Assembly (NCBI GenBank): GCA_963826885.1
Contig: CAWGYL010000007.1
Span: 7,680-71,679, forward strand
Source: Nitrospirota bacterium
GTDB lineage: Bacteria; Nitrospirota; UBA9217
Direction: 5' to 3'
Length of the DNA: 64,000 bases
The position numbers and the translations under genes were made by a program. Below are positions 1 through 30,625 of the stretch, one piece after another (positions within the stretch are counted from its first letter, which is position 1; each line of letters begins with the position of its first letter). Under the pieces are notes generated by a model. That model searched no databases and was not told the DNA's origin. It saw nothing but the letters and a program-made list of their open reading frames with translations.

Positions 1-240
1 GCGCCCGAGTCTGCGAGCTCGACCGCGCCCGCGGGCTCATCTTCATGAAGTACGCTGCGCGTCATCCGAGATGAAGCATATGAAGATCTTAAACGAAGAA
101 GAGCACGACAAAACATTTGGCGTAGTGGTTGCTGATTGATCCAGCTCGCATAATTTTTGTTATTGGCTTGGGTTAGTACAATGATGGGGGGCCGGTGGGG
201 AACACTGTCCCTTTCGTCGTTTTAGTTCCCGGAGACTTGC

Positions 241-1033
241 ATGTCAGCGAATCGCTTCAACGGCTTTACTGACTACGGGATCGGCATCGGCCTGCGCGTG
301 CCGCATTACAACCATATCCTACTCGCAAACCCACCGTCGATTGGTTCGAGATCATTTCCGAAAATTTCATGGTCGATGGCGGGCGTCCGCTGAGGTGCTG
401 GATCAGATTCTCGAACAATATCGGGTCGTGCAGCACGGCGTTTCAATGTACTTCGGTTCGGCCGAAAAGCTGAACCGCGAACACCTGAGGCGTTTCAAGG
501 ACTGGTCAAGCGGACCAAGACGCCGTGGTTTTCCGATCATCTTTGCTGGGGCAGCGTCGATGGCCGTTACACGCATGATCTGCTGCCGATGCCTTACACC
601 TTCGAGGCCGCAAAAATCACCGCGCAAAAAGTCCGGGAGGTGCGATTTCCTGGAAATTCCGATCGCCGTCGAGAATGTCAGCAGTTACGCGGAATTTCAC
701 GTTTCGGAAATGACCGAGTGGGAATTTCTCGATGAGGTCGTCGAGCGGGCCGATTGCGGCATTCTGCTGGACGTCAATAACATTTACGTTTCCTCGCAGA
801 ATCACAGCTTTAATCCGTACGATTATGTGAACAGCGTTCCGGCCGATCGCGTCGCCCAAATTCATATCGCCGGCCACACGAAATATCGGAAATACATTCT
901 CGACACACACGATCACCCGGTCATCGATCCCGTTTGGAAGCTTTACGAGCGTGCCATCCAGCGCGCCGGCCACACCGCGACGCTCCTTGAATGGGACGAC
1001 AGCATCCCCAGCGTTCCAGGAAGTTCACTATGA
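241..1033 (+). pseudogene. DUF692 / MNIO-family (MbnB/BufB-like TIM-barrel oxidase) gene, disrupted by about four frameshifts
   Basis: Hallmark DUF692 segments are recovered, but only by switching frame. From ATG 241: 'GIGLRVPHYNHILLANPP'. Then 'VDWFEIISENFMVDGGRPL'. Then 'EVLDQILEQYRVVQHGVSMYFGSAEKLNREHL'. Then 'LVKRTKTPWFSDHLCWGSVDGRYTHDLLPMPYTFEAAKITAQKVREV'. Then 'DFLEIPIAVENVSSY...ILLDVNNIYVSSQNH...HIAGH...LLEWDD'. Frame changes fall near 335, 391, 501 and 643. The first ~70 aa of the supplied 341..1033 ORF are out of frame. Confidence 0.7.
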
Positions 1034-2010
1034 AGCGCTGAAAGCCAATAAATTCCGGCGCGCCACCGCCTTGGCGGAAGCTCGTACGGAATTGATGCAG
1101 CTTCAGCGCACTATGGCTCGTGCCGTGATGCAGCCGCTGACTTCCTCGGAACGCATGCAGCGCCGCGCTCCCGATGGCGGACCGATGAAGCGCTACGCGT
1201 CGCGCTTCATCAAGCCCAACGAATACCCTTACTTCTTTCGAACGCTTGGAAATTTACAATCGCCAGTATTGGTTTCGCGTTCTTTCTGCGCTCAGCGAGG
1301 ATTTTCCTGGCCTGCGCGCCGTGCTTGGCGAGCGCCGCTTCGATGCTATGGCCAAAGCGTATCTGATCGCCAATCCCTCGCGGTCTTTTACGCTTCGCAA
1401 TCTCAGCGGGCGTATGGGCAATCGTGTGATCAAAAAATCCCAAGTGGGCCGGCAAAAAACAAACCCTTGCGCTGGATATCGTGCGGCTCGAATGGGCGGA
1501 CATTGAAGCTTTCGATGGAAAAGTTGAGCCTGCTCTTCGTCCCGAGGATTTTGCGAGCGCGGCCGGCCCACGAATGAAATTAACGATTCAGCCGTACGTG
1601 CGACTGCTGAGTTTCCGTTATCCCGTAGACGATCTTCTCCTTGAAGTGCGCGAAGAAGACGAAGACACGGATTTCGCCAGCAACACTTTCACGGAGCATC
1701 GCAAGCGCAAACGCGTTCGCGCTGTTGCAAAGCTGAAGCCAGCGCAGATTTTTTTGGCCGTGCACCGCATCGACTACTCCGTTTACTTCCGCCGCATCGA
1801 GCAGGAGGAATTTGCGATTCTCACCGCGCTTCGAAAGGGAAAAACTCTGGGCGTGGCCGTCGAATCCGCTTTCCGCAAAAGCGCGGTTCCGCATCGGCAG
1901 CGGCCTACGAAGGTGCAGGGCGGGTTGCGGCTGGTCTGCTCTCGGTTGGTTCTGCCGTCCGGAGAAAAAAGGCGCTGCGCGCTGAATCTTATTGTAAAGT
2001 GGCGCTTCGA
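1034..2010 (+). pseudogene. DUF2063 (putative DNA-binding, BufC/MbnC-like) gene immediately downstream of DUF692, split over three frames
   Basis: DUF2063-type segments sit in three different frames. 'ELMQLQRTMARAVMQPL...RYASRFIKPN' is in frame 951. 'FERLEIYNRQYWFRVLSALSEDFPGLRAVLGERRFDAMAKAYLIANPSRSFTLRNL' is in frame 1246. 'LALDIVRLEWADIEAFDG...LAVHRIDYSVYF' is in frame 1481. Frame changes are near 1225 and near the A6 run at 1432-1437. The DUF692-DUF2063 pairing is conserved in known operons. Confidence 0.6.
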
Positions 2011-2018
2011 CACGACTC

Positions 2019-2472
2019 ATGAGCAAACTACTCGCTACAGCAAAAACTGGCGATTACAAGTTTGCCGATCTCGTTGGATATCTTCAGTCGCCGTTCCTGC
2101 TCTTCGTTCGCCTGTACTGGGGAATCCAGCTGATTCAGAGTGGTTGGGGCAAACTCCACCATCTCGCCAACGTGACCGAATTCTTCACGAGCCTTGGCCT
2201 GCCTGCTCCGGGCTTTACCGCACTGGCTATCTCCTGCCTGGAATTTTTCGCAGGCATCCGCTTTGCTCTCGCCCCCCTCGCCGCCCATGTCCGTTCTCGT
2301 GCTCACCATCAACATGCTCATGGCCTACATCACCGCCGACCGCGAATTGCTTTTTTCCATTTTTTCCAATCCCGGCAAATTCTATACCGCAGACCTTAAG
2401 ATATTCCCGCGATTGCCTCTCTCCTCGTGCTACTCTTTGGCCCCGGATATTTTTCGCTCGACAGTCTCTTAG
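2019..2472 (+). pseudogene. DoxX-family membrane protein gene, frameshifted at a C6 run (about 2272-2277)
   Basis: 'FLLFVRLYWGIQLIQSGWGKLHHLANVTEFFTSLGLPAPGFTALAISCLEFFAGI' is in frame 2019. It continues as 'VLVLTINMLMAYITAD' only in frame 2194. DoxX is the usual third gene of DUF692-DUF2063 operons. Confidence 0.6.
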
Positions 2473-2929
2473 CCCGCATTTTGGGCTGGTCCGATCCCCC
2501 GGCCGGAAATTCCGCGGCGACCCGCCCTTAATTCATTCACGCGCAAACGTTTCAATTGGGATAGGATTGCTCTCTGGCGCTCCATGGTCCAAAAGGTATC
2601 TCCCTTTGTTCTTCGCAGACACATGTGGTTCGGAGCGCTTCTTCTGTTGTTTCCCTTTTTTGCCGCAACGGCCGGCGAAATGACCTCGACGCTGATGATC
2701 GGCGGCTCCCGCATCGACGTGACCATTGAAACTAAACAATACGTACTGAACGAAAGGCGTACATAAAAAAAAAAAAAATCCTCCAATTTAGATTGCCAGA
2801 GTACGTGGGAACGCGGAGACTGGAACGCGAAATTCAAGTGTTTTTAGTCTTTTGCAGATTACCATCTCAAGCCAATAATCATAGTATGATAACATATTCC
2901 CCAGCTTCTGACAATAGATTAAAAGTTCA

Positions 2930-3460
2930 TTACCGCTGCCGCTCCTCCATCGGAAGCACGGCGATGTAAGGCAGGTTCCGGTAGCGGTCTTTGTAGTCGA
3001 GACCGTAACCGACGACGTACTTATTCGGGATGCGGAAACCCGCGTAGTCCGCTTCAATCTGAACTTTTCTTCGTTCGGACTTGTCCAAGAGCACGCAGAC
3101 TCTGAGCGAGGACGGACCACGCTCGAGTAGCATTTTCTTCAGGTGATTGATCGTAACGCCGGAATCCATGATGTCTTCGACGAGGAGAACGTCCTTTCCG
3201 CGGATGTCCTCTTTCATGTCGGCAATGATTTGAACGGGATGGCTGCCCTTCGAACTGGTACAATGAATAAAATCCATACGGACGGATATCCTGAGCGAAC
3301 GCAGCAGATCGGACATGAAAAAGATGGCCCCCTTGAGAACGCCTACAACGAGCAGGTCCCTGTCTGCATAGTCCGAGGATATTCTGGAGCCGAGTTCCTG
3401 GATCTTTCTTTGGATCTCTTCACTCGTAAACAGCGGTTTTCCAAAATCAATACCGACCAT
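2930..3460 (-). CDS. hpt: hypoxanthine phosphoribosyltransferase
   Basis: 176 aa. PRTase motif 'VLLVEDIMDSGVT'. End 'KYVVGYGLDYKDRYRNLPYIAVL'. Lies downstream of tilS, as in the conserved tilS-hpt arrangement. Confidence 0.9.
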   Translation of the reverse strand: MVGIDFGKPLFTSEEIQRKIQELGSRISSDYADRDLLVVGVLKGAIFFMSDLLRSLRISVRMDFIHCTSSKGSHPVQIIADMKEDIRGKDVLLVEDIMDSGVTINHLKKMLLERGPSSLRVCVLLDKSERRKVQIEADYAGFRIPNKYVVGYGLDYKDRYRNLPYIAVLPMEERQR

Positions 3461-3540
3461 TGCATTTCCTCCATAAAAAACGAAAGCGGTGAAGACCAGG
3501 GCAGGTTTGGATTGAATACTGAAAATAAAGACGCTTTCCC

Positions 3541-4965
3541 CTATCTGTTCTCATCACGCACGCGAACCAACATGACACGCCGCGAATCCGGGCTTGGAAG
3601 GAACCGTTCATCCGTACGGTAACCCAGTACCCATACGATATCGTTACCAGCACAAATGAGAGGTACCCTCTCCCGATTACGCCGGGGGATTTTCTCATCG
3701 ACGAGGTAGTCCTGCAGTTTCTTGTGCCTGCCCCCCATGCCGGAAGGGCAGAATACATCACCCGGACGTCGACTTCTGACCGTCAAAGGAAGTCCCATTT
3801 TATCATAATCGAACACTGCCTGCCAGCGATAATTTTGGATATCCCAAGCCGGTGTTCCCGGCTCTCCCGGTACGATTTCAATCTCTATGCCGAGTTCCGG
3901 CACTGCTGTCAGGCCCGCCAATGCGATGGTTCGGGAGAAGGCCGCCGGTTCTCCTATCGCCGTGATGAGAAACCGGTCATATTCCCGCTCAATCGTGAGA
4001 CCGGGGAGAAAGTTCATGGTCCTGCCCGTCTGGGTTTCCTCCATGAACGTCAATGCCTGCTCGATCTGGACTACGGAGATTCGCGATGAATCCGCGCCGC
4101 AAAGGTCAGCGGTTTTTTTTAGAATTCTGCGCCTGAGCGCGGGAAGCAGGTTGCGGAATTCGGTCCTCTTAATTACCACTGTATCATTCTCCTGCATGAA
4201 AACTCCGGACGCCTTTTCGTCCAAACAGAATCGCATGGCTTCATCTTCGTCGCGGATGAGAGTAGCTTCGAAAGCAAGCGTCTCGACGATGCGGGGGTTA
4301 AAGCCTTTGAGTAGGGGAAGGAGTTCCATCCTGATCCGGTTGCGCATATAAACGGGTTTCGCATTCGATGAATCGGAAACAAAGGGGAGCGCCGCAGCAT
4401 GCAGGTAGGTCAGGATTTCTTCCCGGGTGGACTCAATCAGCGGTCGGATTATGTTGCCCCGCTTCGGCGGAATTGCTGAAAGACCAGAAATTCCCGCACC
4501 GCGCAGGAGTCGCATCAGTATTGTTTCAGCCTGATCCGTTGCTGTATGTCCTGTAGCGATCCGAGACGCTTTGACGGAGCGGGCCACCCGGTCGAGGAAC
4601 GCATACCGGACCTCGCGAGCGCCTGCCTGGGCCGAAAGCCCCCGTTCGCGGCAGAAAGCCGGGACATCAACCTGTTCGATCGTTGCCGAAATGCCGGTTT
4701 TTTGTGCCAGATCGGCAACAAAGAGCGCATCGTCTGCCGATTCCTTGCCTCGAAACAGGTGGTTGAGGTGGGCAAGGTGCAGCGTAAGATCAAGCTCCCT
4801 CGCAAACGTCTGCAGGACGCTCAGGAGGCAGACCGAGTCCGGACCGCCCGACACGGCGATCAACACGCGGTCTCCCGCATTCAGCAGGTGGTATTTCCTG
4901 ATTGTCTTTTTTACTTTGGTTATCAGCATGTTTAAAAAAGCGGAGTCGCTGTTTGACTGCCGCAC
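3541..4965 (-). CDS. tilS: tRNA(Ile)-lysidine synthetase
   Basis: 474 aa. N-terminal PP-loop 'VLIAVSGGPDSVCLL' and 'LHLAHLNH'. TilS-like C-terminal domain. The true start may be the internal Met (MLITKV...). Confidence 0.9.
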   Translation of the reverse strand: MRQSNSDSAFLNMLITKVKKTIRKYHLLNAGDRVLIAVSGGPDSVCLLSVLQTFARELDLTLHLAHLNHLFRGKESADDALFVADLAQKTGISATIEQVDVPAFCRERGLSAQAGAREVRYAFLDRVARSVKASRIATGHTATDQAETILMRLLRGAGISGLSAIPPKRGNIIRPLIESTREEILTYLHAAALPFVSDSSNAKPVYMRNRIRMELLPLLKGFNPRIVETLAFEATLIRDEDEAMRFCLDEKASGVFMQENDTVVIKRTEFRNLLPALRRRILKKTADLCGADSSRISVVQIEQALTFMEETQTGRTMNFLPGLTIEREYDRFLITAIGEPAAFSRTIALAGLTAVPELGIEIEIVPGEPGTPAWDIQNYRWQAVFDYDKMGLPLTVRSRRPGDVFCPSGMGGRHKKLQDYLVDEKIPRRNRERVPLICAGNDIVWVLGYRTDERFLPSPDSRRVMLVRVRDENR

Positions 4966-5024
4966 TCGACGATAGTATTCTTATTATTCCGAAGGTTTGC
5001 GATGAGATGAGGGAAGGGGTAAAA

Positions 5025-5100
5025 TGGTGGCGGTGCAGGGACTCGAACCCCGGACACAGGGATTATGATTCCCCTGCTCTACCAGCTGAGCTACACCGCC
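5025..5100 (-). tRNA. tRNA with CAU anticodon (elongator Met or Ile2/lysidine type), 76 nt with encoded CCA
   Basis: Reverse complement is GGCGGTGTAGCTCAGCTGGTAGAGCAGGGGAATCATAATCCCTGTGTCCGGGGTTCGAGTCCCTGCACCGCCACCA. It has a 7-bp acceptor stem, a D arm, an anticodon loop AUCAUAA (anticodon CAT), a T arm GGTTCGAGTCC and discriminator A73. 1:72 is G:C, so it is not an initiator. Confidence 0.85.
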
Positions 5101-5194
5101 CCGAAAATTTAGAGGCAACGATACTGTATTGCCGCCTTTTTGTCAAGAGAAACGTGGCAAGGTTCAGGGCCGGGTTTGAAAGCCGCCGGTCTTC

Positions 5195-5818
5195 CTACTC
5201 CTTGAACCGTGTTTCCTCTTTCTGTATCCGCTCTATTTCCTCTTTCTTCGTCTTGCAGCTGATGCAGTATCGCGCCAGAGGATTGACCTGAAGCCGCTTT
5301 ATATCGATCTCTTCGCCACATTCCTCACAGAGGCCGTAGGTATTGTTCTGGAGCTTTCGGAAAGCGTCGGCAATGTCCTTGTACTGTTCATATTTCATTT
5401 CCAGGAGAGAAGAATCGATTCCCTGATCTATATCGAGTGCAGACTGGTCGGCGCTGTCCATGGCGGAATCTATTTTTTGGCCGGTTTCGCGCGTAAGCCG
5501 GCGGCCCATCTGCGCTTCCAGTCCATCCACAACCTCGTTTCGCTTTTTCAGTAGGAGCTTTTTCAGGAGTTCATGGCGCTTCTGCACAGCCGGTGACAGT
5601 CTGGCAGTTTTTGGCGCCGCCGGGGAAGAAGGTACGGAACGGGTTTTTTTTACTGCCTGTTTCTTCACCGATATTTTGGCTGTTTTTTTAACTGATGCCT
5701 TTCTCGTCTTGGAGACGGTTTTTTTCACCGCTTTTTTTGCCGCGGGCTTTCTTTTTGCAGCAGTTGTAACCGCTTTTTTCTTCGTTGCGCCTTTTTTTAA
5801 TGCCATATCGTACTCCAC
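5195..5818 (-). CDS. DksA/TraR-family C4 zinc-finger protein with a long Lys/Ala-rich histone-H1-like N-terminal tail
   Basis: C-terminal 'CEECGEEIDIKRLQVNPLARYCISCK' (CxxC-17-CxxC DksA finger). The N-terminal ~90 aa is 'KKGATKKKAVTTAAKRKPAAKKAVKKTVSKTRKASVKKTAK...'. Confidence 0.75.
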   Translation of the reverse strand: MEYDMALKKGATKKKAVTTAAKRKPAAKKAVKKTVSKTRKASVKKTAKISVKKQAVKKTRSVPSSPAAPKTARLSPAVQKRHELLKKLLLKKRNEVVDGLEAQMGRRLTRETGQKIDSAMDSADQSALDIDQGIDSSLLEMKYEQYKDIADAFRKLQNNTYGLCEECGEEIDIKRLQVNPLARYCISCKTKKEEIERIQKEETRFKE

Positions 5819-6068
5819 CTCCTGAAACGCGTTGGCGACTTGGTTCCATATTATAGATATCTATTAAAGCAAATTCAAGACAATTTGTCATTGGCAGAGC
5901 GGAAAATTTGCTCTTTCCCCCGGCGGCCGCCTGCGCGCCAGTCCCCCGGATACACTCCCGCTGCCCGCAAAGGCCGCCGGAATTGCCGCGGATTTGCCTA
6001 AAGAGTGGTTCTCGATCCTGTTTTCTGATAAAATTGAGCAACGGAATAAATCCAACCTCGGGGTACAC

Positions 6069-8258
6069 ATGAAAAAAAATATTCGTGCTCAGGTCCTTGT
6101 TTTGCCCATTATTGTGGCTATATCATTCCTGTGTTCTTCGCGGCCTTGCCCAGCGTCCGACAGCTATATGGGACTGAGGGATCAAATAAATCGGGAATTA
6201 TCAGGCTACGATAGTGAATTACGAAAAAAAATACTTTTTGACTATTTCCTGTCGGTCAATGAAAAAAACGATGTATCCCTTCGGGATTTTCGCGGAGGTG
6301 ATGACGCTGCCGCCCGCGCTGTCGGCCGGGGCAAGGCGGCGCTTGTTTTGCATCAGCTGAAAAGGGTGATCGGGCAGGATGCCTTCGCCGTGCTTGTCCG
6401 AACTCTTGCAACTGAGTTGTCAATCACGGCGGATCCCTGGGACGGAATCAGAATGCTCTCCGAGCAAGAAACCGGGCGCAACCTCGCCTGGTTTTTTCAG
6501 CAATGGGTGGATCGTAAAGGAGTTCCCGACCTTCGCATGGAGGATGCCGCCGTACGAAGGAGCGGCAGCATGTTTGAGGTGAGCTTTGATCTGCTGCAGA
6601 ACGACGACGTCTATATCCTCGATGTCCCTATCCAGATTTCGTTTCTTCGCGGGGGGAGCGAGTCTGAAACGATTCAGCTCGATTCCCCGAAAAAGCATTT
6701 CACTCTTCTTGTTGCCGACGAACCGTCGATGGTCGTGATAGACCGGGATTACGACATTCCCCGTAAACTCGCCGATGCCGAGATTCCGCCGCTGCTGGGC
6801 GGGCTACTGAAGGATGAAAAACCTGTTCTTGTCCTGCCCGTGAGCGGGGAGAATACCTATGCAAGCATCATTGAGCACTGGAAGAAGCGGGGTGTTGATG
6901 CGAGAAAAGCCGCGACCATCACTGAGGAGGACCTGAAAACGTCATCTTTTCTTGTGCTGGGAATCGACAACCCGATTATCAACAGGCTTTATGGAAAAAT
7001 CGACGGGGGAGAGGGCGTATTGAGCGCGCAGGCCCGAAAAAACCCATGGAATCCGGAGAAGATTATTGCGGCGATCGAGGCGAAGACCGTCGCTGCCACC
7101 GATGAGTTTATACGTCTGCTCCCCGAAGTCGGGGCGTGCAGTTCCCTGTCGCTTGATGCCACAGGGAGGATTACGCAGATTACTGCGGAGTCCGAAAGGG
7201 GGATCGGGATGGATTTGCGAGAGGAGCCGTTGGCAATCGAAGTTGCCGCTCTTAAGACGCTGTCACGGGTGATTGATGACGCTAAAGGTAAAAAAATAGT
7301 TTATGTCGGAGAAAATCACGATCGGTTCGCCCACCACGAGGTCGAACTCGAAGTCATCAAAAGCCTGTATCAGAAGAACACGGAAATCGCCATCGGCATG
7401 GAGATGTTCCAGCGCCCCTTCCAGCGCGTGCTCGACGATTATATCAACGGCACCATAGAAGAGCGCGAGTTTCTGAAAAAAACGGAGTACTTCAGTCGAT
7501 GGGGCTATGATTACAACCTGTATAAGCCGATTCTCGATTTTGCCCGCGCCGGGAAGATACCCGTCGTTGCCCTGAATATCAGGCGTGAAATTACGGACAA
7601 GGTGGCCCGGAAAGGCATGGACTCCCTGACCGAAGATGAGAAAAAGGAAATCCCCGAGCAAACCGATTTTTCGGACACAGCATACCGGGAACGGCTGCTC
7701 AGCGTGTTTGCGCAACACAAGAACAACAACGAGAAAAATTTTGACTTTTTTTACCAGGCACAGATCCTGTGGGATGAGACCATGTCAATGTCCATCAATG
7801 AGTACCTGAAGAAAAACCCGGGACGCCAGATGATCGTGATCGCCGGGCTGGGGCATTTTGCCTACGGCTCCGGGATTCCCAAGCGAACTTTTCGGCGGAA
7901 CGGTTATACATACGCGACGATTCTGAATGATGCCGAGGTCGACCCGGAAGTTGCAGATTATGTATTGTTCCCCGAACCTCTGGATGGAGTCACGACGCCC
8001 AAACTCGGCGTATTCCTGAAGGAGATCGGAGGGAAGGTCGTTATTGAGGACATGCCGGCCGGCAGCGTTGCCCGGGATGCCGGCCTCAAGGCGGGAGACC
8101 GGATTATCGCACTCGATAACGCACTGGTACAGACACCGGATGATGTAAGGATCGCTCTCTTTTATAAGAAAGAGGATGATACAGTTACTATCGCCGTCAT
8201 ACGCCAGCGCTTCCTGCTAGGGGACCGGCAAATGACATTTGAAATAAAGCTCCATTAA
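6069..8258 (+). CDS. secreted/lipoprotein multidomain protein: unknown N-terminal domain + ChaN/Tiki-superfamily domain + C-terminal PDZ domain
   Basis: Signal peptide 'MKKNIRAQVLVLPIIVAISFLCSS'. ChaN-like block 'KKIVYVGENHDRFAHHEVELEVIKSLYQ...IGMEMFQRPFQ...ILWDETMS'. PDZ-like end 'GVFLKEIGGKVVIEDMPAGSVARDAGLKAGDRIIALDN'. The ORF call begins 75 nt upstream at 5994. Confidence 0.6.
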   Translation: MKKNIRAQVLVLPIIVAISFLCSSRPCPASDSYMGLRDQINRELSGYDSELRKKILFDYFLSVNEKNDVSLRDFRGGDDAAARAVGRGKAALVLHQLKRVIGQDAFAVLVRTLATELSITADPWDGIRMLSEQETGRNLAWFFQQWVDRKGVPDLRMEDAAVRRSGSMFEVSFDLLQNDDVYILDVPIQISFLRGGSESETIQLDSPKKHFTLLVADEPSMVVIDRDYDIPRKLADAEIPPLLGGLLKDEKPVLVLPVSGENTYASIIEHWKKRGVDARKAATITEEDLKTSSFLVLGIDNPIINRLYGKIDGGEGVLSAQARKNPWNPEKIIAAIEAKTVAATDEFIRLLPEVGACSSLSLDATGRITQITAESERGIGMDLREEPLAIEVAALKTLSRVIDDAKGKKIVYVGENHDRFAHHEVELEVIKSLYQKNTEIAIGMEMFQRPFQRVLDDYINGTIEEREFLKKTEYFSRWGYDYNLYKPILDFARAGKIPVVALNIRREITDKVARKGMDSLTEDEKKEIPEQTDFSDTAYRERLLSVFAQHKNNNEKNFDFFYQAQILWDETMSMSINEYLKKNPGRQMIVIAGLGHFAYGSGIPKRTFRRNGYTYATILNDAEVDPEVADYVLFPEPLDGVTTPKLGVFLKEIGGKVVIEDMPAGSVARDAGLKAGDRIIALDNALVQTPDDVRIALFYKKEDDTVTIAVIRQRFLLGDRQMTFEIKLH

Positions 8259-8342
8259 ATCGGCAATGCAGGGCAAACCACGGTGTGATATCATAGAGAT
8301 TGGTGGATTTTAAGACGGGAGTTGAAGAGGGAGGGAGGAGTC

Positions 8343-9149
8343 ATGAAAAAACATGCCCTCGTGGCGCTTGTTACATTACTAACGTTCGCCTGCTCGAGCA
8401 CGGTGACAAAGAACTTCAAGGTCTTTGTTGATCCGCCGGACTCTGTTATCACTGTTGTGTCAGGTCACGATCTCAGAGAATTGAAATATCACACACCAGC
8501 GACCATAACCGTCGAAGTGCCGAAGGATCCAGCGTTGGCGAGGAAGGCCGTTCTGGAGGTGCGGAGAGATGACTATAAGCCGATAATCATGGCCCTCCAC
8601 GATATCCCAGAAGGACAAACCCTGAACATCAAGCTTGAAAAAGTCATCCAGCATCAGTTCCAGTACCGGCTGACCTATCGTCTTCTCACTCCCGTTGAGT
8701 CGGATTCGCTTCAGCACAAGGACAAAAGCATCGCCATATCCTTCATGATCGTCAATCAGTCGTTCCAGATGCGCCTGGAAAACCTGACGTCCAACGACAT
8801 CAAAATAATCTGGGACCGCTCGCAATACACCGATGAGCATATGCAGTCTCACCGACTCATGCATTCGGGCATCCGTTTTCAGGACAGAAACACTCCTATC
8901 CCGGACCAGATCGTGCGTCCGCACGTATCGATACAGGAAGCGGTGTTCCCGGTCGAGCATGTTATATTTATCCCGCAGAAAAAAAGCTATGACATCGAGC
9001 CGCTGTTTCCGCTGGACAACGATAAAGCCGCTGAATTGAAGGGGCGGACGATCAACCTTTTTATTCCGATTGAAGACAACCAGGCCATCACCCCCTACAA
9101 TTTCAAAATAGAAATAACCGATGCAGTGAAGGAACCCATCAAGGAGTAA
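8343..9149 (+). CDS. hypothetical lipoprotein
   Basis: 'MKKHALVALVTLLTFACSS' lipoprotein signal. No recognisable domain. Confidence 0.5.
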   Translation: MKKHALVALVTLLTFACSSTVTKNFKVFVDPPDSVITVVSGHDLRELKYHTPATITVEVPKDPALARKAVLEVRRDDYKPIIMALHDIPEGQTLNIKLEKVIQHQFQYRLTYRLLTPVESDSLQHKDKSIAISFMIVNQSFQMRLENLTSNDIKIIWDRSQYTDEHMQSHRLMHSGIRFQDRNTPIPDQIVRPHVSIQEAVFPVEHVIFIPQKKSYDIEPLFPLDNDKAAELKGRTINLFIPIEDNQAITPYNFKIEITDAVKEPIKE

Positions 9150-9211
9150 AAACAGCAACGGATATGATGTGAATCATAGATCTTTTTTTTCGCAGGGAGT
9201 ATACTTACCAC

Positions 9212-9454
9212 ATGTTTAAGGAAGGTTGCCCAGGAAGCGCAGAGATTCGGACTCCCAAGCCCGAGGATATCCGTTGCCAGAAGTGCGGCGAGAAGATCGA
9301 GATATGGACCGACGAGCCAGAGACCCAATGCAAGAAGTGCGGGCATCTGAATGCCCGTCCCATCGGAACATCCTGCATCGAGTGGTGCGCTTTTGCCAAG
9401 GAATGCGTGGGCGCCGAGAAGCTTGAAAAGCTACTGAAGGCCGCCAAGGGCTGA
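9212..9454 (+). CDS. small Cys-rich zinc-ribbon-like hypothetical protein
   Basis: 80 aa with 'CQKCGEKIEIW...CKKCGH' plus four further Cys. No family recognised. Confidence 0.35.
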   Translation: MFKEGCPGSAEIRTPKPEDIRCQKCGEKIEIWTDEPETQCKKCGHLNARPIGTSCIEWCAFAKECVGAEKLEKLLKAAKG

Positions 9455-9754
9455 GTACGTACCCGCGTCATCCCTCCTTTTTCCTGACAGGGCAGCCTAA
9501 TTTTACGCTGTCCCCCCCTATCAGTTCCGTTTGGACCCCCCGTCATCTGATTTTGCAATATCAAAAGCAGTCGTATGATTGACTAGTCCAGCGTTGTACC
9601 GGACAGTAGCGATTACAATAGGCTCAATCATCAGTCACTTCTTTTCCCCGGGTCGGAACATGACAGCGACCGGCACCGGATGCTAAAACTCATCTTGCAA
9701 TTTCCCCAGTTGTTCTGTAAAATACAAAAATTTCAATGCGCTCCCTGAATTACT

Positions 9755-11977
9755 ATGAATTATCTTGAAAACTTAAACCCGCCTCAACAGGAGGCAGTGC
9801 TGCACGGGGACGGACCCCTTCTGATCCTCGCCGGAGCGGGCAGCGGCAAAACACGGGTGATTACGAGCAGGATCGCACACCTGATACGCGAACGGGGCGT
9901 CGGGCCGGACAACATCCTCGCAGTTACCTTCACGAACAAGGCCGCAAACGAAATGAGGGAGCGTGTTGAGCGGATGCTTGACATCCCGCTCACCCGGCTT
10001 TGGATTAGCACGTTCCACTCCTCCTGCGTTCGGATCCTGCGCCAGCACATCATGGCGCTGGGTTATAAGCGCTCCTTCGTAATCTATGACGAAACGGACC
10101 GCTCGTCGCTCATCAAGGCCTGTATGACTGATTTGCGGATTGACTCGGAGCGGTACCAGCCCCGGGCAATCAGCGCGCGAATCAGCGCACTCAAGAACAA
10201 TCTGACGGACGCCGAGCAGTTCGAGAAAACGAGCTCTCATTACGGGTTTGATGAGGCGGTCGGCCGGGTCTATTCGCTGTTCCAGGAAAAGATCAGGGAA
10301 GCAGGCGGCCTGGATTTCGACGACCTGCTTATGCTTACAGTCAGGCTCTTCGAGCGTCACCAGGATGTGCTCCGGTATTACCAGAGCTTGTTCAAACATA
10401 TCCTGATTGACGAATACCAGGATACGAATCATGCCCAGTACCGTCTGGTGCGTCTGTTGACCGCGGAGCGGAAAAACCTCTGTGTCGTGGGTGACGATGA
10501 CCAGAGCATTTACCGTTTCCGCGGAGCGGACATCTCGAACATTCTGAATTTTGAAAAAGACTACCCTGATGCCAGGGTCATCAAGCTCGAACAGAACTAC
10601 CGCTCCACCGGGAACATCCTCGACGCGGCCGGGGCGGTGGTAGCCCGCAACCTCGGCAGAAAGCCCAAGGAACTCTGGACGCAAAAACGCGGCGGCGACA
10701 AGATCCAGTGCTATAAAGCGGTGGACGAAAAGGACGAGGCTCGCTTCATCTGTCGGACCATCCAACAGGAAGTGGACGGGGGCCGGAGCCTGCGCGAGCT
10801 GGCGATGCTCTACCGCACGAACGCCCAGTCGCGGGCCCTCGAGGATGGGCTCAGAAACCGGGGTATTCCGTACCGGATATTCGGCGGTCTGCGGTTCTAC
10901 GACCGCAAGGAAATCAAGGATATCATCGCCTACCTGCGGGTCCTGCAGAACCCCGCGGATATGATCAGCCTCCGTCGGATCATTAACGTCCCGGCCCGCG
11001 GCATCGGCGACACTACTGTCGACAAGCTCGAGCGGGCAGCGGCGCAGGCGGGTGTCACGCTGTACGAGTCCGCGATGAATGCGGAGAATGCCGACGTCAC
11101 ATCATCGGCCAAAAAGAAGCTCCGGGAATTCACCGGCATGATGGAGCGCATGCGGATCGATCTCGGAACCGCAACCATCACCGATCTTGTCAGACGAGTG
11201 ATCCACGAATCCGGTTATGGCGCTGCGCTTGAGAAGGAGAAGACCGTCGAGTCGCGGATCAGGCTGGAAAACCTGAACGAGCTTCTGACGGCCACCGAGG
11301 ATTTTCAAGAGCAAAATCGTGATGCTTCGGTTCCGGCGTTCCTGGACCAGGTGGCGCTCATTACAGACCTTGAGCAGCAGACCGCGGCTGACTCCGGACG
11401 GGGAAACAGCGATTCTGTGACGCTTATGACGCTTCATAACGCCAAGGGCCTCGAATTCGCAGTGGTTTTCATGGTGGGCATGGAAGAAGGTTTGTTCCCC
11501 CATTCCCGTTCTGCGGAAAACGAGGAGGAACTGGAAGAAGAGCGGCGGCTCTGCTATGTAGGAATCACCAGGGCCAAGGAAAAACTTATCCTGACGTATG
11601 CCATGGAGCGGCGACTGTACGGGTACCCGCAGGCAAATCTGATGTCGCGATTCGTAAACGAAATTCCTGGTGATGCCATTGAATTTATCGGCACGGAATC
11701 GGCTGACACCCGTTATCGGGGACAGCGGGTGTCGTGGGAAGACAGTTCTTGCGAGACCGTTCAAAAGGACACGATTTTCTCGAAACCTGTTCAGCCGGTA
11801 ACATCCGGCTCCGGTAGCCGGTACTATAAAGGCGCCGTGGTGCGGCATTCCAAGTTCGGCCTCGGCACAGTCCAGCGTTCGGAAGGGGCGGGGGACGAGT
11901 TAAAGATCAGCGTGAGTTTTCCTGGACATGGCATAAAAACGCTGGCGGTAAAATACGCGAATCTTGAAGTGATATGA
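9755..11977 (+). CDS. pcrA: ATP-dependent DNA helicase PcrA/UvrD
   Basis: 740 aa. 'LNPPQQEAV', Walker A 'AGAGSGKTRV', 'ILAVTFTNKAANEM', 'ILIDEYQDTN', 'QNYRST'. Has the UvrD C-terminal Tudor-like domain. Confidence 0.9.
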   Translation: MNYLENLNPPQQEAVLHGDGPLLILAGAGSGKTRVITSRIAHLIRERGVGPDNILAVTFTNKAANEMRERVERMLDIPLTRLWISTFHSSCVRILRQHIMALGYKRSFVIYDETDRSSLIKACMTDLRIDSERYQPRAISARISALKNNLTDAEQFEKTSSHYGFDEAVGRVYSLFQEKIREAGGLDFDDLLMLTVRLFERHQDVLRYYQSLFKHILIDEYQDTNHAQYRLVRLLTAERKNLCVVGDDDQSIYRFRGADISNILNFEKDYPDARVIKLEQNYRSTGNILDAAGAVVARNLGRKPKELWTQKRGGDKIQCYKAVDEKDEARFICRTIQQEVDGGRSLRELAMLYRTNAQSRALEDGLRNRGIPYRIFGGLRFYDRKEIKDIIAYLRVLQNPADMISLRRIINVPARGIGDTTVDKLERAAAQAGVTLYESAMNAENADVTSSAKKKLREFTGMMERMRIDLGTATITDLVRRVIHESGYGAALEKEKTVESRIRLENLNELLTATEDFQEQNRDASVPAFLDQVALITDLEQQTAADSGRGNSDSVTLMTLHNAKGLEFAVVFMVGMEEGLFPHSRSAENEEELEEERRLCYVGITRAKEKLILTYAMERRLYGYPQANLMSRFVNEIPGDAIEFIGTESADTRYRGQRVSWEDSSCETVQKDTIFSKPVQPVTSGSGSRYYKGAVVRHSKFGLGTVQRSEGAGDELKISVSFPGHGIKTLAVKYANLEVI

Positions 11978-12026
11978 TCGCGCAGGCTATATACAACAGG
12001 CACCAGACAGGGGATAATGAGGAATT

Positions 12027-12314
12027 ATGAAGATCACAAGACAGGAAGTTGAACACGTTGCGAAACTCGCACGCCTGGAATTGTCGGAGCAGGAAAAAGA
12101 AAAGCTGACAGATCAGCTTTCAAATATTTTGACGTATGTTGAAAAGCTGAACGAACTTGATACAAAGAACGTGGCGCCCACATCGCATGTTCTGGACATT
12201 ACCAATGTTATGCGAGATGATACTCCTGGGGAAAGTCTGCCGCAGGATCTGGCCCTAGCAAATGCGCCGGACAAGGCCGCAGGGCACTATAAAGTGCCAA
12301 GGATAATAGAATAG
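12027..12314 (+). CDS. gatC: Asp-tRNA(Asn)/Glu-tRNA(Gln) amidotransferase subunit C
   Basis: 95 aa. 'EVEHVAKLARLELSEQEKEKLTDQLSNILTYVEKLNELDT'. Confidence 0.85.
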   Translation: MKITRQEVEHVAKLARLELSEQEKEKLTDQLSNILTYVEKLNELDTKNVAPTSHVLDITNVMRDDTPGESLPQDLALANAPDKAAGHYKVPRIIE

Positions 12315-12420
12315 CGGGGAAAGTAGCAAGGCATGAGTATTTGAGAGTTCGCAGGTCGGTCTCGGGGAAAATCTTTTATTACTCGCGCCGGTCTCTGAAC
12401 GGCAGTCATAAAGGAGAACA

Positions 12421-12774
12421 ATGTTCAGATTGATGCTTCGATCAAAAATCCACCGTGCAACCGTTACGGACGCCAACCTCGAATACGAGGGCAGTCTGAC
12501 CGTCGATCCCCTGCTTCTCGAGACGGCTGGTATTCTTCCTTACGAACAGGTGAGCGTTTCCAATCTCAATAATGGGGAACGGTTTGAGACATATGTAATC
12601 CCCGGCAAAACCGGAGCGGGAGAGATGGTGCTAAACGGCCCGACAGCGAGAAAAGGGGTTAAAGGAGACAAGGTCATCGTTTTCTGCTACGAGTATTTCA
12701 ACGAAGAAGAGCTGAAAAATTTTAAACCCAGGATCATTCTTGTGGATGAAAACAACCGGATGAGGGGAAAATAA
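12421..12774 (+). CDS. panD: aspartate 1-decarboxylase proenzyme
   Basis: 117 aa. '[25 protein letters not shown]' carries the Gly-Ser self-cleavage site. '[10 protein letters not shown]'. Stop overlaps the gatA start. Confidence 0.85.
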
Positions 12775-14234
12775 TGGAGTACTATCAGCTGACGATACAC
12801 AAACTGCACGACATGCTGAAAAAAGGCGAGACAACGTCACGCGCTGTCACCGAGTCGGTTCTCGACAGGATAAAATCAGTTGACGAAAAGGTCAAAGCCT
12901 ACATCACGGTCACGGCGGAGGGAGCGCGTTCGCAAGCGCAGGAAGCGGATAAACGGATTAGGTCCGGAGATTCCTCTTCCCTGCTTCTCGGCATCCCGAT
13001 CGCCGTGAAGGACAATATGTGCACTGACGGTATTAAAACCACCTGCGCCTCGAAGATTCTCGGAAACTTCGTGCCGCCGTATGATGCAACTGTGGTCGCC
13101 AAACTCAAGAAGGCGGGCTATGTGCTCTGCGGCAAGCCTAACATGGATGAATTCGCCATGGGGTCATCGACGGAAAATTCGGGGTTCTTTATTACGAAAA
13201 ATCCCTGGGACCTGGAACGGATACCCGGTGGATCGAGCGGGGGATCGGCGGCAGCTGTTGCCGCGGGAGAATGCATCGCCGCGCTCGGCTCGGACACGGG
13301 TGGCTCGATCCGCCAGCCAGCGGCATGCTGCGGGGTCGTTGGTCTCAAGCCGACCTACGGAAGAGTGTCTCGCTACGGCCTTGTGGCATTCGCATCATCC
13401 CTGGACCAGATCGGTCCCATAACCAAGGATGTGACTGATTCCGCCCTGCTCATGAATGTGCTCTCAGGCCACGACACCAGGGATTCAACATCGGCGGAAA
13501 TTGCGGCTCCTGATTTTACCCGGGCGCTCAAAAAAGACGTAAAAGGCATGAAAATCGGCCTTCCGAAGGAATACTTTATCGAGGGGATGGACCCGGAAGT
13601 GGAAAAGGCGGTTAAGGACGCAGTGAAAACCCTCGAGGGACTCGGCGCTACGGTGGTTGAAGTTTCACTTCCTCATACGGATTATGCTGTGGCCACCTAC
13701 TATATTCTGGCAACATCCGAGGCAAGCTCGAATCTCGCCCGTTATGACGGAGTCAAGTACGGGTTCCGCGCCGGCGGAGCCAAAGACCTTCTGGACATGT
13801 ACATGAAATCACGTAGCCAGGGCTTCGGCCCCGAGGTAAAACGCAGGATCATGCTCGGTACCTACGCGCTATCCGCGGGATACTACGATGCTTATTACAA
13901 AAAAGGACAGCAGGTCCGGACATTGATCAAACGGGATTTCGACGAGGCTTTCAAGATTGTGGATGTCATCGCAACGCCTACGGCGCCGACAGCCGCATTT
14001 AAAATCGGGGAAAAATCCGCCGACCCTCTCCAAATGTACCTGTCCGATATTTTCACGATCAGCGTGAACCTTGCAGGCATACCGGGAATCTCGATCCCCT
14101 GCGGTTTCACCAAGCTGAATCTTCCCATCGGCCTACAATTGCTCGGCAAGCACTTCGACGAAGAGTCGATTTTGCACGCGGCTTATGCCTATGAACAGGC
14201 TACGGCGTGGCATACGAGAAGAGCGAAGTTGTAA
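12774..14234 (+). CDS. gatA: Glu-tRNA(Gln)/Asp-tRNA(Asn) amidotransferase subunit A
   Basis: 486 aa. Amidase signature '[15 protein letters not shown]...[13 protein letters not shown]'. Confidence 0.92.
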
Positions 14235-14281
14235 GGGAAGGGGCAAGGGGTGGGAAGACTTTAATTCAATGAGGAGCAAGT

Positions 14282-15712
14282 ATGAAATATGAGGCAGTTA
14301 TCGGGCTTGAGGTGCATGCCCAGCTCCAGACGAAGACTAAAATTTTCTGCAGATGCGAGACCTGCTTCGGAGAAGACGCAAACACGCGGACCTGTCCGGT
14401 CTGCATCGGCATGCCCGGGGTGCTGCCCGTGCTGAATAGAAAAGCGGTGGAATACATCGTCAAGACAGGGCTGGCCACGCACTGCACGATCAGTCCTTAC
14501 AGCCGGTTCGCGCGCAAAAACTATTTTTATCCCGATCTTCCCAAAGGCTACCAGATATCCCAGTACGAGCTCCCGGTCTGCGAGCGCGGGTACGTCGAGA
14601 TCGTTGTCGAAGGCGCGGTCAAGCGGATCGGACTCACCCGCATTCACCTTGAAGAGGATGCGGGAAAAAACCTGCATACGTCGGAAGCCGGGGCGAGCCT
14701 CGTGGATCTGAATCGCGCCGGTACGCCGCTCATGGAGATTGTATCTGAGCCGGACATCCGTACGCCCGAGGAAGCATCGGAGTATCTCAAAAAACTTCGC
14801 TCCATCCTGCGTTACATCGAAGTCTCCGATGCGGACATGGAAAAAGGGAATTTCCGGTGCGACGCGAACGTCTCCATTCGTCCTGTGGGGGCCAAGGAAT
14901 TCGGCACGCGAACAGAAATCAAGAATGTAAACTCCTTCAAATATGTGCAGAAAGCGATCGAGTACGAGATCAAGCGCCAGGCGCAGGTCCTCGATGACGG
15001 CGGTAAGGTTGTACAGGAGACCCGGCTGTTTGACTCCTCGAAAGGGGTTACTTTCGCTATGCGCAGCAAGGAGGAGGCGCACGACTACCGTTATTTTCCC
15101 GAACCGGATCTCGTCCCCATCGTTGTGGCTCAGGAGATAATTGAGAACGTCGGCAAGACCATTCCCGAATTGCCCGATGCCAAACGGGAGCGGTTTGTGA
15201 AGGAATACGGCCTTCCGGAATATGACGCAGACATGCTCACGCAGAGTAGGCCGATGGCAGCCTATTACGAAGAAGCGGTAAAACTATCCGGCCAGCCCAA
15301 AGTTGTTTCGAATTGGATGATGGGCGAGTTGATGCGGCTGCTGAACGCGGACAATAAGGAAATTGAGGACTGCCCGATCAATCCCGACAAGCTCGCCGGA
15401 ATGGTCAAACTGATCAGCAACGGCGTGATTAGCATCAAGATCGCCAAGACCGTTTTTGAGGAGATGTACAAGACCGGAAAAGATGCGGACACGGTGGTAA
15501 AAGAGCAGGGGCTGGTACAGGTATCGGATACGGGCGAGATTGAAAAGATCATCGATAACGTGATCAAGGCCAACCCCGGTCAGGCCACCGAGTACCGATC
15601 GGGGAAGGAAAAACTGTTTGGCTTCTTTGTCGGCCAGGTTATGAAAGCGAGCAAGGGAAAGGCGAACCCTGATATGGTGAACCAATTGCTCAAGAAAAAG
15701 CTGAGTGCCTAA
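14282..15712 (+). CDS. gatB: Glu-tRNA(Gln)/Asp-tRNA(Asn) amidotransferase subunit B
   Basis: 476 aa. '[13 protein letters not shown]', '[10 protein letters not shown]', 'HLEEDAGK', '[10 protein letters not shown]'. C-terminal YqeY-like domain. Confidence 0.92.
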
Positions 15713-27822: not shown

Positions 27823-28559
27823 TTTGATCCTCCTAGAGTTTTTAACACACAAAACCTGAGTGTTGCTGGTTGATGTCGACGCCACCTCAATCGACATCCC
27901 GATTTGCTACATTGTGCTGCTATTGCCTCTTTTTCCCATTAACACCCCCTTTCTCCTTAGACAAGGATTCTCGTAACGAAAAAAATTACTGCCCAATCTT
28001 GCTTGAAAACGCTGACGCCTTGATGCGCGCCCGGAGATAATCCATTTCAATCGGAACGATCAAGCCGCCGGGTCCATTAAAATCCCCATGTCTTACCTAG
28101 CCTAAATTGCATTAAACATTCCATTTTTTTATTTCACAACATTAAATTTATGTCACAAAAAGATACGAGAGAAATATGCCTTCATAAACAAATCGTTAAA
28201 CATACTTTGTTACATATAAAAATGTTTTATAATATTATAATTACAATTTGTAACATAATTAAAATTGTGTTTTATATAAAATACGGTAGGTGAAATTACC
28301 AACATTCGGGTATTTGACCGTTTTTAAAATGCATCCCATCAAAACAACCCCTTTCATATGGAATTAAAGGCTGTAAATGCATGGCAGCTGAATTGTGCGT
28401 TTTACCAGTTTTATTAAGGCAGGCTTAGGGGAAAAATCAGGCGTGCTGCATGGAACGATTGCGGGACGAACTGGGAAAGTGGGTAGTTAGGGAAAATTTA
28501 TTAAATACGGAGAAAATCGTCTTTCACAACGAAGTTCAAGGAGGCAGAGGGACGTTATG

Positions 28560-28950
28560 CGAGATCAAGACGGCTATCGGTAAGGGGATTGAACCGGATG
28601 AGCAAAGAAGATAGGGCATTTTATCTTTAAGGACTTAGCGACAAAATATCTTGAATGGATAAAAGGCAGTCAAGCGTCGACAGAGGTCAAGGGATATATC
28701 ATACGCATGCTTGAAGGATCGGGAAATCCTGCTATCAGGCGACAGCGAAAATGTGGAAGCTGTCGAGCTCGTGCCACGTGCCGCTAAGAGTTAACATGCA
28801 CCTTGTCGAACAGTTACAGACAGATCTAAAGCGGAAGGGCTTGAGCCCCGAGAGCAAAACCACCTGAAAGAGACAAGCTCAAACAAAATCTTGAGCACTT
28901 TGAAGCAGCTGTTTTCGAAAAGCTATGAATGAGATATGAATATGGTTGAA
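28560..28950 (+). pseudogene. integrase N-terminal (SAM-like domain) remnant with stops
   Basis: 'FKDLATKYLEWIKGSQASTEVKGYIIRMLE...' then '...LKRKGLSPESKT...'. Interrupted by stop codons. Lies immediately tRNA-proximal to repeat B. Confidence 0.45.
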
Positions 28951-29000
28951 CAGTCCAAATGAAAAAGGGTTGACTATTGAACGTCAACCCGTTGAAAACT

Positions 29001-29045
29001 TGGTGGAGCTGAGGGGGATCGAACCCCTGACCCCACGACTGCCAG
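29001..29045 (-). repeat. direct repeat B: 45-nt copy of the tRNA-Ala 3' end (1 mismatch)
   Basis: 'TGGTGGAGCTGAGGGGGATCGAACCCCTGACCCCACGACTGCCAG'. Preceded by hairpin GGGTTGAC...GTCAACCC. Confidence 0.75.
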
Positions 29046-29531
29046 TCGGTCTTGGGGGTTTTTATTGCTGTAGTGTTTCGTGATAACTGGTTGTCTTTAA
29101 TCGGTTCACGTATGAAGAGTAGGGTAGCATATGGTCACTGACAATTTCTGTTTATGACTCTCTACTATATAAAAAACAAAAACTATACATTCGCATATTC
29201 CGGAGGATATCTGCCGAGTATTTCAAAACGATTTCATGATCTCGAACTTAGCTTCCGGCAGGACAGACTATAATCAGTAGTTTACTGTTAGACAACATCT
29301 ATGGCATAAATCCATTTACTCTCGCGTGAGAAAAAAACGCTCGTGACTAACCATCTTGTCCTCTTCTGCGTTTTGCGATTATGGCTCCTACTAGGAACAC
29401 GCTGATTCGCCTTCCATTCGTTGAATTCCAAGGTGTTATGCAGAATCGCTGAGGGTGATAGCTCGGCTTGACAAATTAATAAAATTAAGCTATTATTTTA
29501 TTAACATAATAATTGGGTTAGCACAAAATAA

Positions 29532-29903: not shown

Positions 29904-29957
29904 TCTCAGCAGTCGATCTCCCAACGAATAGCTGATTGAATTCCAGATAAACGCCTT

Positions 29958-30530: not shown

Positions 30531-30625
30531 CCATCTCAAAACTCCATACCTACTATCAACTGCAAAATACTATACAAAAAATTGAAAAGGAGTTAGCCGA
30601 TGTTAGCTAACCCCTTGATAACTCT

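Follow-up and report, generated by a model that had tools for sequence, protein, structure and literature searches.

The window, a 64,000-nt stretch of a public long-read contig, opens with genes whose conserved protein segments switch frame repeatedly in a three-frame translation. In order, over 241-2531, they encode an MNIO bufferin maturase (BufB), a DUF2063 partner and a DoxX protein. A truncated fifth gene, a sequencing adapter and hpt follow. The features are:

1-133, no strand assigned: sequence unrelated to bufA, where the precursor gene is expected; a second breakpoint lies at 133/134
134-240, plus strand: tail of bufA (last two codons and stop), then the bufA-bufB intergenic region
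241-1089, plus strand: bufB, MNIO/DUF692 bufferin maturase; 6 indel events, stop codon lost
1086-1985, plus strand: bufC, DUF2063/HvfC_N partner; start codon lost, 7 indel events
2019-2531, plus strand: bufD, DoxX membrane protein; 5 indel events
2584-2732, plus strand: fifth conserved gene, first 49 codons only
2733-2778, minus strand: top strand of an Oxford Nanopore ligation adapter, untrimmed; chimeric junction
2776-3460, minus strand: hpt-ftsH intergenic region and hpt (hpt at 2930-3460); start of the genuine Nitrospirota-like contig

Stitched across its frames, the MNIO protein scores 357 bits with Pfam PF05114 and 345.8 bits with NF050167, the NCBIfam BufB equivalog (cut-off 310), close to the 352.9 bits of its orthologue in the reference operon described below. 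The partner protein reaches 57.3 bits with PF09836 (DUF2063; cut-off 27.2), and the third gene product 47.2 bits with PF07681 (DoxX; cut-off 23.6). Every score given with a cut-off exceeds it, and the three gene identities, and their order, that had been proposed from the sequence alone are confirmed. The bufB/bufC overlap, ATGA, reads ACGG in the window. A BufB-type MNIO with adjacent bufC and bufD in the order of bufABCD operons is therefore present; open, translatable frames are not, and the broken frames are attributed to read error.

The earlier note ended the block at 2472, an out-of-frame stop: DoxX ends at 2531 and homology runs on to 2732. The last part of this homology is the fifth gene, in relatives a protein of about 346 aa with a signal-peptide-like N-terminus and an HEMIH motif. 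Its 49 residues in the window are all identical to those encoded at 5148-5294 of the reference (49/49); the gene goes no further, as the read starts there. The GC content of the operon block, 0.54-0.57, is near that of the remaining window.

A scan of GTDB identified the reference, L096, in the Acidobacteriota MAG MFD04434.bin.1.131. Window 134-2732, directly beside the adapter, matches it at 94% overall and at 96-98% outside bufB, an identity sufficient to place indels but not to tell each erroneous substitution from a strain difference. The homology to L096 ends at 2732, as does that to other relatives. The stretch 134-240 is 98% identical to L096 and to two further loci, L097 and L014; the differences are a 1-nt deletion and a substitution. 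The L096 operon is intact: it encodes a BufA2-like precursor, BufB, BufC, DoxX and a secreted HExxH protein.

Full-length, single-frame genes are the rule elsewhere, for MNIO in 140/154 relatives and for DUF2063 in 155/163; the order MNIO, DUF2063, DoxX, fifth gene is kept in 139 of the 163 related loci fetched. None of the window's frameshifts was seen in the 154 MNIO and 163 DUF2063 loci, nor did comparison with orthologous loci reveal the shared stops by which the earlier note would have recognised an old pseudogene. Partial MNIO and DUF2063 matches among the relatives lie mostly at contig edges. The best MNIO match in a protein search has 90% identity; among JGI metagenome contigs, alignments of more than 1.8 kb do not exceed about 81-84% identity at the DNA level. 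The closest relative derives from a Nanopore-only soil metagenome project assembled with Flye and Medaka, so such data exist for its lineage.

Placed against L096, the closest intact reference, about 19 small indel events, in both directions, break the frames in 134-2732:

Intergenic region: 142/143
MNIO: 320/321, 392/393, 501/502, 643/644 (2 nt), 1011, 1083
DUF2063: 1222, 1418-19, 1427, 1430/31, 1431/32, 1926/27, 1931/32
DoxX: 2043/44, 2052, 2281/82, 2287-88, 2408-09

In the earlier note, which counted at least eight frameshifts, frame changes had been put near 391, 501, 643 and 1225, which holds to within a few bases, and near 335, about 1435 and 2272-2277, where the events lie some 10-15 bases away (320/321, 1418-1432 and 2281-2288, respectively); those at 1011, 1083, 1926-1932, 2043-2052 and 2408 had been missed. 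Short base runs occur in or beside only some of the events, which means that homopolymers alone do not account for the pattern.

Once the indels are corrected, the window proteins contain no in-frame stops and remain close to those of L096: 262/283 residues are identical in BufB (92.6%), 290/299 in BufC (97%) and 155/169 in DoxX (92%). With the fifth gene included, the range is 92-100%, in agreement with the near-absence of amino-acid damage noted before. A pseudogene under relaxed selection was considered and rejected on these same two grounds, the lack of nonsense codons and the conservation of the corrected proteins. An old pseudogene cluster was likewise rejected, as the frameshifts are unshared and L096 is fully intact.

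The substitutions are of two kinds. In bufB, where identity to L096 drops to 88% against 96-98% in the flanks, 71 of 94 mismatches fall at third codon positions; the segment is a naturally divergent allele. Mismatches in DUF2063 and DoxX show no third-position excess (2:7:6 and 5:11:6 by codon position, respectively) and occur in bursts, like errors, one of them inside bufD at 2201-2400. Outside bufB, over 1.7 kb, only about 38 substitutions accompany about 13 indel events. Substitutions dominate bacterial mutation spectra, and a high ratio of indels to substitutions is typical of nanopore error. Because the closest reference is 94% and not 100% identical, some of these 38 mismatches could be real strain differences, and conceivably a few of the indels too.

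The main contig has a wholly different error profile. Window 2776-14965 is 100.000% identical to an independently assembled contig, L094; the 12,190 bases align without a single mismatch or gap. In the comparison of the tail with L096, 2,610 columns contain 17 gap openings. Seven independent contigs are 100% identical to the window, only from base 2776 on, and collinearity on the right-hand side begins at 2776 in all 10 contigs that carry the same hpt. The cluster to which this hpt belongs carries Nitrospirota names. In these other assemblies ftsH adjoins hpt (10/10), in the order ftsH-folP-dacA-ybbR-glmM; this block is absent from the entire window, and the window sequence to the left of 2776 is absent from all ten. 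The genuine contig sequence is cut 5 nt before the start codon of ftsH. One exact search for the 43-nt junction gave 0 matches in GTDB species genomes. Exact look-ups of the 60-aa ORF that the adapter truncates, and of eight plausible gene calls within the tail, likewise had no match.

Exactly at this break in collinearity, on the minus strand, lies the top strand of an Oxford Nanopore ligation adapter, matched over 2737-2778 to adapter sequences confirmed in the literature. The copy consists of a T-run leader followed by ATGTAC(GCC)TTTCGTTCAG-TACGTATTG, the pattern being ATGTAC..TTCGTTCAG.TACGTATTG. Its local alignment score is 51, with the next-best site in the window at 24; an alternative scoring scheme gives 27, compared with 10.1±1.8 for shuffled sequences, and 0/300 shuffles reach that value. 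The copy deviates from the adapter by a 4-nt insertion, a 1-nt deletion and one mismatch, noise that leaves the kit version undecidable. The assembled record thus contains a sequencing adapter at which collinearity breaks on both sides, at 2776 to the right and at 2732 to the left, and across which both the organism and the error profile change.

At the other end of the block, homology to the relatives breaks off sharply at 133/134, two codons short of where the precursor gene should stop. Bases 1-133 contain no Cys-rich ORF, align to bufA of L014 and L096 on either strand no better than shuffled sequences, and match none of the 175 fetched loci nor the rest of the window in blastn and tblastx. 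Searches of 1-133 for a second adapter (LSK109-type, LSK114-type, bottom strand and rapid adapter) gave no significant match. The Cys-rich precursor with a Sec signal, directly upstream of MNIO in a bufferin operon, is accordingly missing from the window. Its absence from 1-240 had been noted before and stands; truncation by the window edge, offered as the reason, does not, since the breakpoint is internal. Nor would a DUF2282-type precursor be the one to expect: relatives carry BufA2-like six-Cys precursors of the BUF_6/12Cys kind. That of L096 has 97 aa and six Cys, and scores 42.2 bits (E = 7e-11) with the BufA2 model NF050166, whose cut-off is 60.

With a probability of about 0.9, window 134-2778 is an assembly artefact that preserves the uncorrected errors of a concatenated, untrimmed read joined to the contig. 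Direct observations are the adapter, both breaks in homology, the switches of lineage and of error profile, and the intact orthologues. The "decayed" bufferin cluster is almost certainly not a pseudogene: the idea of a recent inactivation gives way before a Nanopore adapter at a chimeric junction, an origin in another phylum-level lineage and intact operons in about 140 relatives. The adapter, homology breaks and error profile support the alternative raised alongside it, a localised error of consensus or indel type.

We propose that base-calling made one read of two DNA molecules that went through the same nanopore in immediate succession. In minus-strand orientation, the first would be Nitrospirota-like and stop near 2776, 5 nt short of the ftsH start. 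It would be followed by the leader adapter of the other molecule, from 2778 down to 2737, and then by this second molecule itself, a sheared fragment of an Acidobacteriota genome running from 2732 down to 134 through the N-terminus of the secreted HExxH protein, bufD, bufC, bufB and the bufA-bufB spacer. The adapter would have stayed untrimmed and the read unsplit at it, and the assembler would have placed the foreign tail in the contig. The tail is probably of low coverage, with the support of a single read; with few or no other reads there, polishing would fail, and the leftover read-level error (about 19 indels and about 2% substitutions) would appear as frameshifts.

The structure of the junction resembles that of unsplit concatenated Nanopore reads, in which the adapter top strand (a T-run and ..TGTACTTCGTTCAGTTACGTATTGCT) lies between unrelated inserts, oriented as the leader of the second. 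The window has the same arrangement, with an indel-rich far side of the adapter and an error-free main contig. Unlike a simple unsplit read, it has a further breakpoint, at 133/134, which is adapter-less and unexplained by a simple two-molecule model.

In a different view of the tail, the chimeric read faithfully reports a real acidobacterial strain that has lost its precursor and whose orphaned tailoring genes are decaying by frameshift. Unrelated sequence does take the place of the precursor, precisely from its 3' end and free of any adapter, and the divergent bufB allele means that the strain does differ from L096. However, the ratio of indels to substitutions outside bufB is far higher than in bacterial mutation spectra, the substitutions come in bursts without third-position bias, nonsense codons are absent after indel correction, and one indel falls even in the spacer. 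Moreover, the block starts with an untrimmed adapter, so unprocessed read-level sequence did enter the assembly here. We consider a genuinely decaying strain highly improbable.

Readings that keep the locus in its place fare worse than the chimeric read. Acidobacterial DNA inserted beside hpt in a Nitrospirota genome, by horizontal transfer or rearrangement, and later pseudogenised, would be physically contiguous with hpt, as it is in the record, and the GC content of the block does resemble that of its surroundings. But the junction is a sequencing adapter and does not occur in GTDB species genomes; the insertion would also have removed ftsH and the block downstream of it, present after hpt in all ten other assemblies, seven of which are 100% identical up to the junction. 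This reading is close to refuted. Least credible of all, to the point of being negligible, is that the locus is correctly placed and the frameshifts are either functional, by programmed frameshifting or recoding, or produced by systematic base-calling error at modified bases. The few indels beside short runs (A6 near 1432, C6 near 2275) are nothing specific to it, and programmed frameshifting is incompatible with about 19 events, shifting the frame both ways, within 2.6 kb. It is further contradicted by the event in the intergenic spacer and by the fact that neither the bufB stop nor the bufC start is preserved; no event is common to relatives, no slippery motifs shared with orthologues were seen, and the placement is contradicted by adapter and synteny.

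The operon underlying the tail is an ordinary BUF2-type bufferin operon, from another organism than the remaining window. As far as it is described in PMC11626156 and PMC12452194, the bufA2-bufB-bufC-bufD operon of Caulobacter vibrioides has the same canonical MNIO, DUF2063, DoxX order. The likeness extends to the closest intact relatives, where a six-Cys precursor of the CKGKNSCKGKGGC repeat type with a signal-peptide-like N-terminus is encoded directly upstream. The window itself differs in lacking the precursor and in having every gene frame-broken, which we attribute to the artefact. Set against the Caulobacter type in these accounts, the acidobacterial precursor falls below the BufA2 model cut-off, and the operons add the conserved HExxH gene, which is not among the genes listed there for Caulobacter bufABCD operons. 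The Haemophilus HvfABCX/oxazolin-type MNIO clusters (PMC11252979) also have an MNIO, a DUF2063-type partner and a DoxX-like protein in common with the window. The HvfB, HvfC and HvfX models are secondary matches here, at 254.6/360, 34.6/142 and 26.6/80 bits relative to their cut-offs, far below them; BufB is the best model and the sole one to pass.

In the account of the Caulobacter system given in PMC11626156, BufB and BufC convert precursor cysteines to 5-thiooxazoles, and DoxX is dispensable for modification. The experimental basis for both the modification and the copper binding lies in the Caulobacter system alone. By homology, an operon of the L096 type would direct the modification of a six-Cys Sec precursor by BufB and BufC, its export, and the chelation of periplasmic copper.

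For quality control, the finding means that about 2.8 kb of foreign DNA, plus a sequencing adapter, stands where ftsH should be in a public long-read contig. Left uncorrected, the artefact gives a Nitrospirota-like genome a false RiPP cluster and false pseudogenes, simulates the loss of the essential gene ftsH at the hpt position, and inflates contamination and pseudogene counts. Its signature is a burst of frameshifts without amino-acid damage that ends at a T/A run followed by TGTAC..TTCGTTCAG..TACGTATTG. The biological weight of the locus is small: a BUF2-type bufferin cluster of soil Acidobacteriota is ordinary and very common. It would be greater if the misplaced fragment were truthful in showing bufA2 replaced at a sharp breakpoint and a divergent bufB within conserved flanks, which we hold to be unlikely; the two features together would then amount to a turnover of precursor and maturase by recombination, inside a bufferin operon conserved in all other respects.

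Three-frame translation of window 1-2850 gives recognisable protein segments that change frame repeatedly. Stitched together, they make three proteins with clear family matches, as the earlier note had said of three genes in shifting frames:

MNIO/DUF692 enzyme (bufB): PF05114 (Pfam), 357 bits; NF050167 (NCBIfam BufB equivalog), 345.8 bits, above the cut-off of 310
DUF2063 partner (bufC): PF09836, 57.3 bits
DoxX protein (bufD): PF07681, 47.2 bits

Long open frames are packed densely across the remainder of the window, so the frame damage is confined to this region. It is adjoined by a gene of the main contig:

2930-3460, minus strand: hpt

An exact look-up of the hpt protein retrieves 10 independent contigs, drawn from assemblies of JGI, ENA, NCBI and Logan, all with the gene order dksA, tilS, hpt, ftsH, folP, dacA, ybbR, glmM. 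The window matches them only from base 2776 on; in seven of the ten, 100% identity reaches that base exactly. Against the independent contig L094, identity is 100.000% across 12,190 bases, with 0 mismatches and 0 gaps. In every one of the ten, ftsH follows hpt, with its GTG start 5 nt past the break. At this place the window has a run of 14 A, then the frameshifted cluster; the ftsH-glmM block is absent from the whole window.

The minus strand from 2778 to 2737 reads T14-ATGTAC-GCC-TTTCGTTCAG-TACGTATTG. It aligns with the top strand of the Oxford Nanopore ligation adapter, ..CCTTTTTTTTTTAATGTACTTCGTTCAGTTACGTATTGCT, apart from a 4-nt insertion, a 1-nt deletion and a single mismatch. The alignment scores 51, with a runner-up of 24 over both strands of the whole window; under a second scoring scheme it scores 27, against 10.1±1.8 in 300 shuffles, none of which equals it. 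The 28-nt core is the Nanopore read-start adapter according to the Porechop_ABI preprint; the full top strand with its T-run appears in PMC11533379, there without an adapter label, and in PMC12886913. The older adapter form (T10-AATGTAC) scores 51 and the kit-14 form (T8-CCTGTAC) 42, the copy being too noisy for choosing between them. Its orientation is that of the leader adapter of a read running from 2778 towards base 1.

The longest unbroken DUF2063 segment served as query in a scan of GTDB species genomes. The top match, at 98% protein identity, is L096, contig_392 of the MAG "uncultured Acidobacteriota bacterium MFD04434.bin.1.131". Window 134-2732 (hereafter the tail) aligns with L096 2697-5296 at 94.0% DNA identity with 17 gap openings, and the alignment ends at 2732, a few bases short of the adapter. 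In L096 the bufferin operon is intact and has five genes, whose products are:

Precursor (bufA): 97 aa, signal-peptide-like N-terminus, six Cys in CKGKNSCKGKGGC-type repeats
BufB: 283 aa, 352.9 bits
DUF2063 protein: 299 aa, its start overlapping the BufB stop in ATGA
DoxX: 169 aa
Fifth gene product: 346 aa, HEMIH motif

The precursor scores 42.2 bits (E = 7e-11) on NCBIfam BufA2 NF050166, under the cut-off of 60; the precursor of the relatives is BufA2-like, not of the DUF2282 type previously expected. A short window ORF, 2584-2766, consists of the first 49 codons of the fifth gene (49/49 identical to L096) followed by adapter-derived codons. Because members of the main-contig hpt protein cluster are named Nitrospirota and the top relatives of the tail in the GTDB scan are nearly all Acidobacteriota, main contig and tail come from different phyla.

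Genuine bacterial pseudogenes gain substitutions far more than indels. Against L096, the tail contains about 19 indel events, one of them in the intergenic spacer and a single one abolishing the stop of bufB together with the start of bufC. Corrected for indels, its proteins contain no in-frame stops and are identical to those of L096 at 262/283 (bufB), 290/299 (DUF2063), 155/169 (DoxX) and 49/49 (fifth gene) positions. Substitutions are of two kinds, those in bufB and those outside it. Outside bufB they are infrequent: 1.7% in DUF2063, 4.3% in DoxX, 0/149 in the fifth gene and 1/186 in intergenic sequence. These mismatches show no third-position excess (2:7:6 by codon position in DUF2063, 5:11:6 in DoxX), and those in DoxX are concentrated within 2201-2400. 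Such indel-rich, position-blind and bursty differences beside an untrimmed adapter are the look of uncorrected nanopore sequence, and they favour the local indel error that the earlier note had offered as its alternative. The bufB segment (window 241-1090, L096 2805-3656) differs from L096 at 94 positions (11.1%), and 71 of these are third codon positions. It is only 88% identical to L096, and no fetched locus comes closer in DNA identity; identity to L096 in the spacer beside it, bufC, bufD and the fifth gene is 96-98%. These mismatches are ordinary evolutionary divergence of an allele, and the segment resembles a maturase allele, naturally divergent or recombinant, set in a conserved operon.

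An old pseudogene, with the same stops in relatives, is contradicted by 163 related loci (80 from JGI metagenomes, 80 from GTDB genomes and three from exact look-ups of two MNIO hits), which do not share the frameshift lesions of the window. For MNIO, 140 of 154 loci give a match in a single frame that spans at least 93% of the length; for DUF2063, 155 of 163 do so, the remainder being mostly interrupted by contig ends. The four downstream genes (MNIO, DUF2063, DoxX and the fifth gene) are collinear in 139 of the 140 loci possessing all four. In three Nanopore-derived MFD MAG contigs (L103, L114, L117) the match to MNIO, to DUF2063 or to both is partial or broken up at a distance from any contig end, which may reflect their own indel errors or real lesions. 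MNIO proteins 84-88% identical to that of the window carry source names from several phyla (Verrucomicrobiae, Gemmataceae, Edaphobacter, Candidatus Angelobacter), which suggests very strong conservation or transfer of the maturase, or else mis-binned MAG contigs.

The adapter, both homology breaks, the switches in lineage and error profile and the intact orthologues are observed directly; a decayed cluster is not supported. Most likely, a single base-called read combined two molecules: a Nitrospirota-like genome fragment stopping just short of ftsH, then an acidobacterial fragment carrying its own leader adapter. The adapter would have been left untrimmed and unused for read splitting, and the assembler would have put the foreign tail into the contig; with scant or zero supporting coverage, read-level errors would survive polishing. 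The genome of L096 comes from a Nanopore-only project (SQK-LSK114 kit, Flye meta mode, one Medaka round; PMC12313526), which shows that Nanopore-only data exist for this lineage. Bases 1-133 sit in the place of bufA and have no similarity to bufA or anything else fetched; they give way abruptly to the acidobacterial sequence two codons ahead of the bufA stop, with no detectable adapter. They may be a third part of a multi-chimeric read, the result of a misjoin to more of the contig left of the window, or a real rearrangement in the acidobacterial strain of the tail.

Elsewhere on the main contig, GC is low (0.40-0.44) at 28000-35000, compared with about 0.52-0.56 in other parts. This stretch looks like an island integrated next to a tRNA:

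29532-29903: response-regulator-like ORF
31277-32584, minus strand: IS110-family transposase
33084-34160, plus strand: Acyl_transf_3 acyltransferase
34903-34975, minus strand: tRNA adjoining these contents

A related strain, 98.5-98.9% identical to the main contig (L004, ENA ERZ25039509 contig_120817), has a DDE_Tnp_1 transposase at 5681-7408, between a PDZ/haem-binding protein gene and dksA; this insertion is missing from the window.

In the Caulobacter bufferin system, precursors belong to the BUF_6/12Cys class and bear Sec signal peptides; their Cys residues become 5-thiooxazoles through the action of the MNIO together with its DUF2063 partner, the product binds copper as a chelator once exported, and modification proceeds without DoxX (PMC11626156). 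The window has MNIO, DUF2063 partner and DoxX in common with the Caulobacter BUF2 operon and lacks the precursor and open frames, which we attribute to the artefact. In these acidobacterial bufferin operons a conserved fifth gene follows DoxX (L096 5148-6188, L014 6177-7217, L012 8394-9407), and window 2584-2732 is its N-terminus. Its product of about 346 aa begins with what resembles a signal peptide and contains the motif HEMIH..EEG. No family in Pfam or NCBIfam matches it above cut-off (Peptidase_M61 does so faintly, E = 0.049), and it has no sequence relative in the PDB; it may be an uncharacterised metalloprotease tied to bufferin maturation. The frameshifted cluster is no real biological feature of the genome of the window, and is useful as a flag of contamination and misassembly; the real locus underlying it is a BUF2-type bufferin operon.
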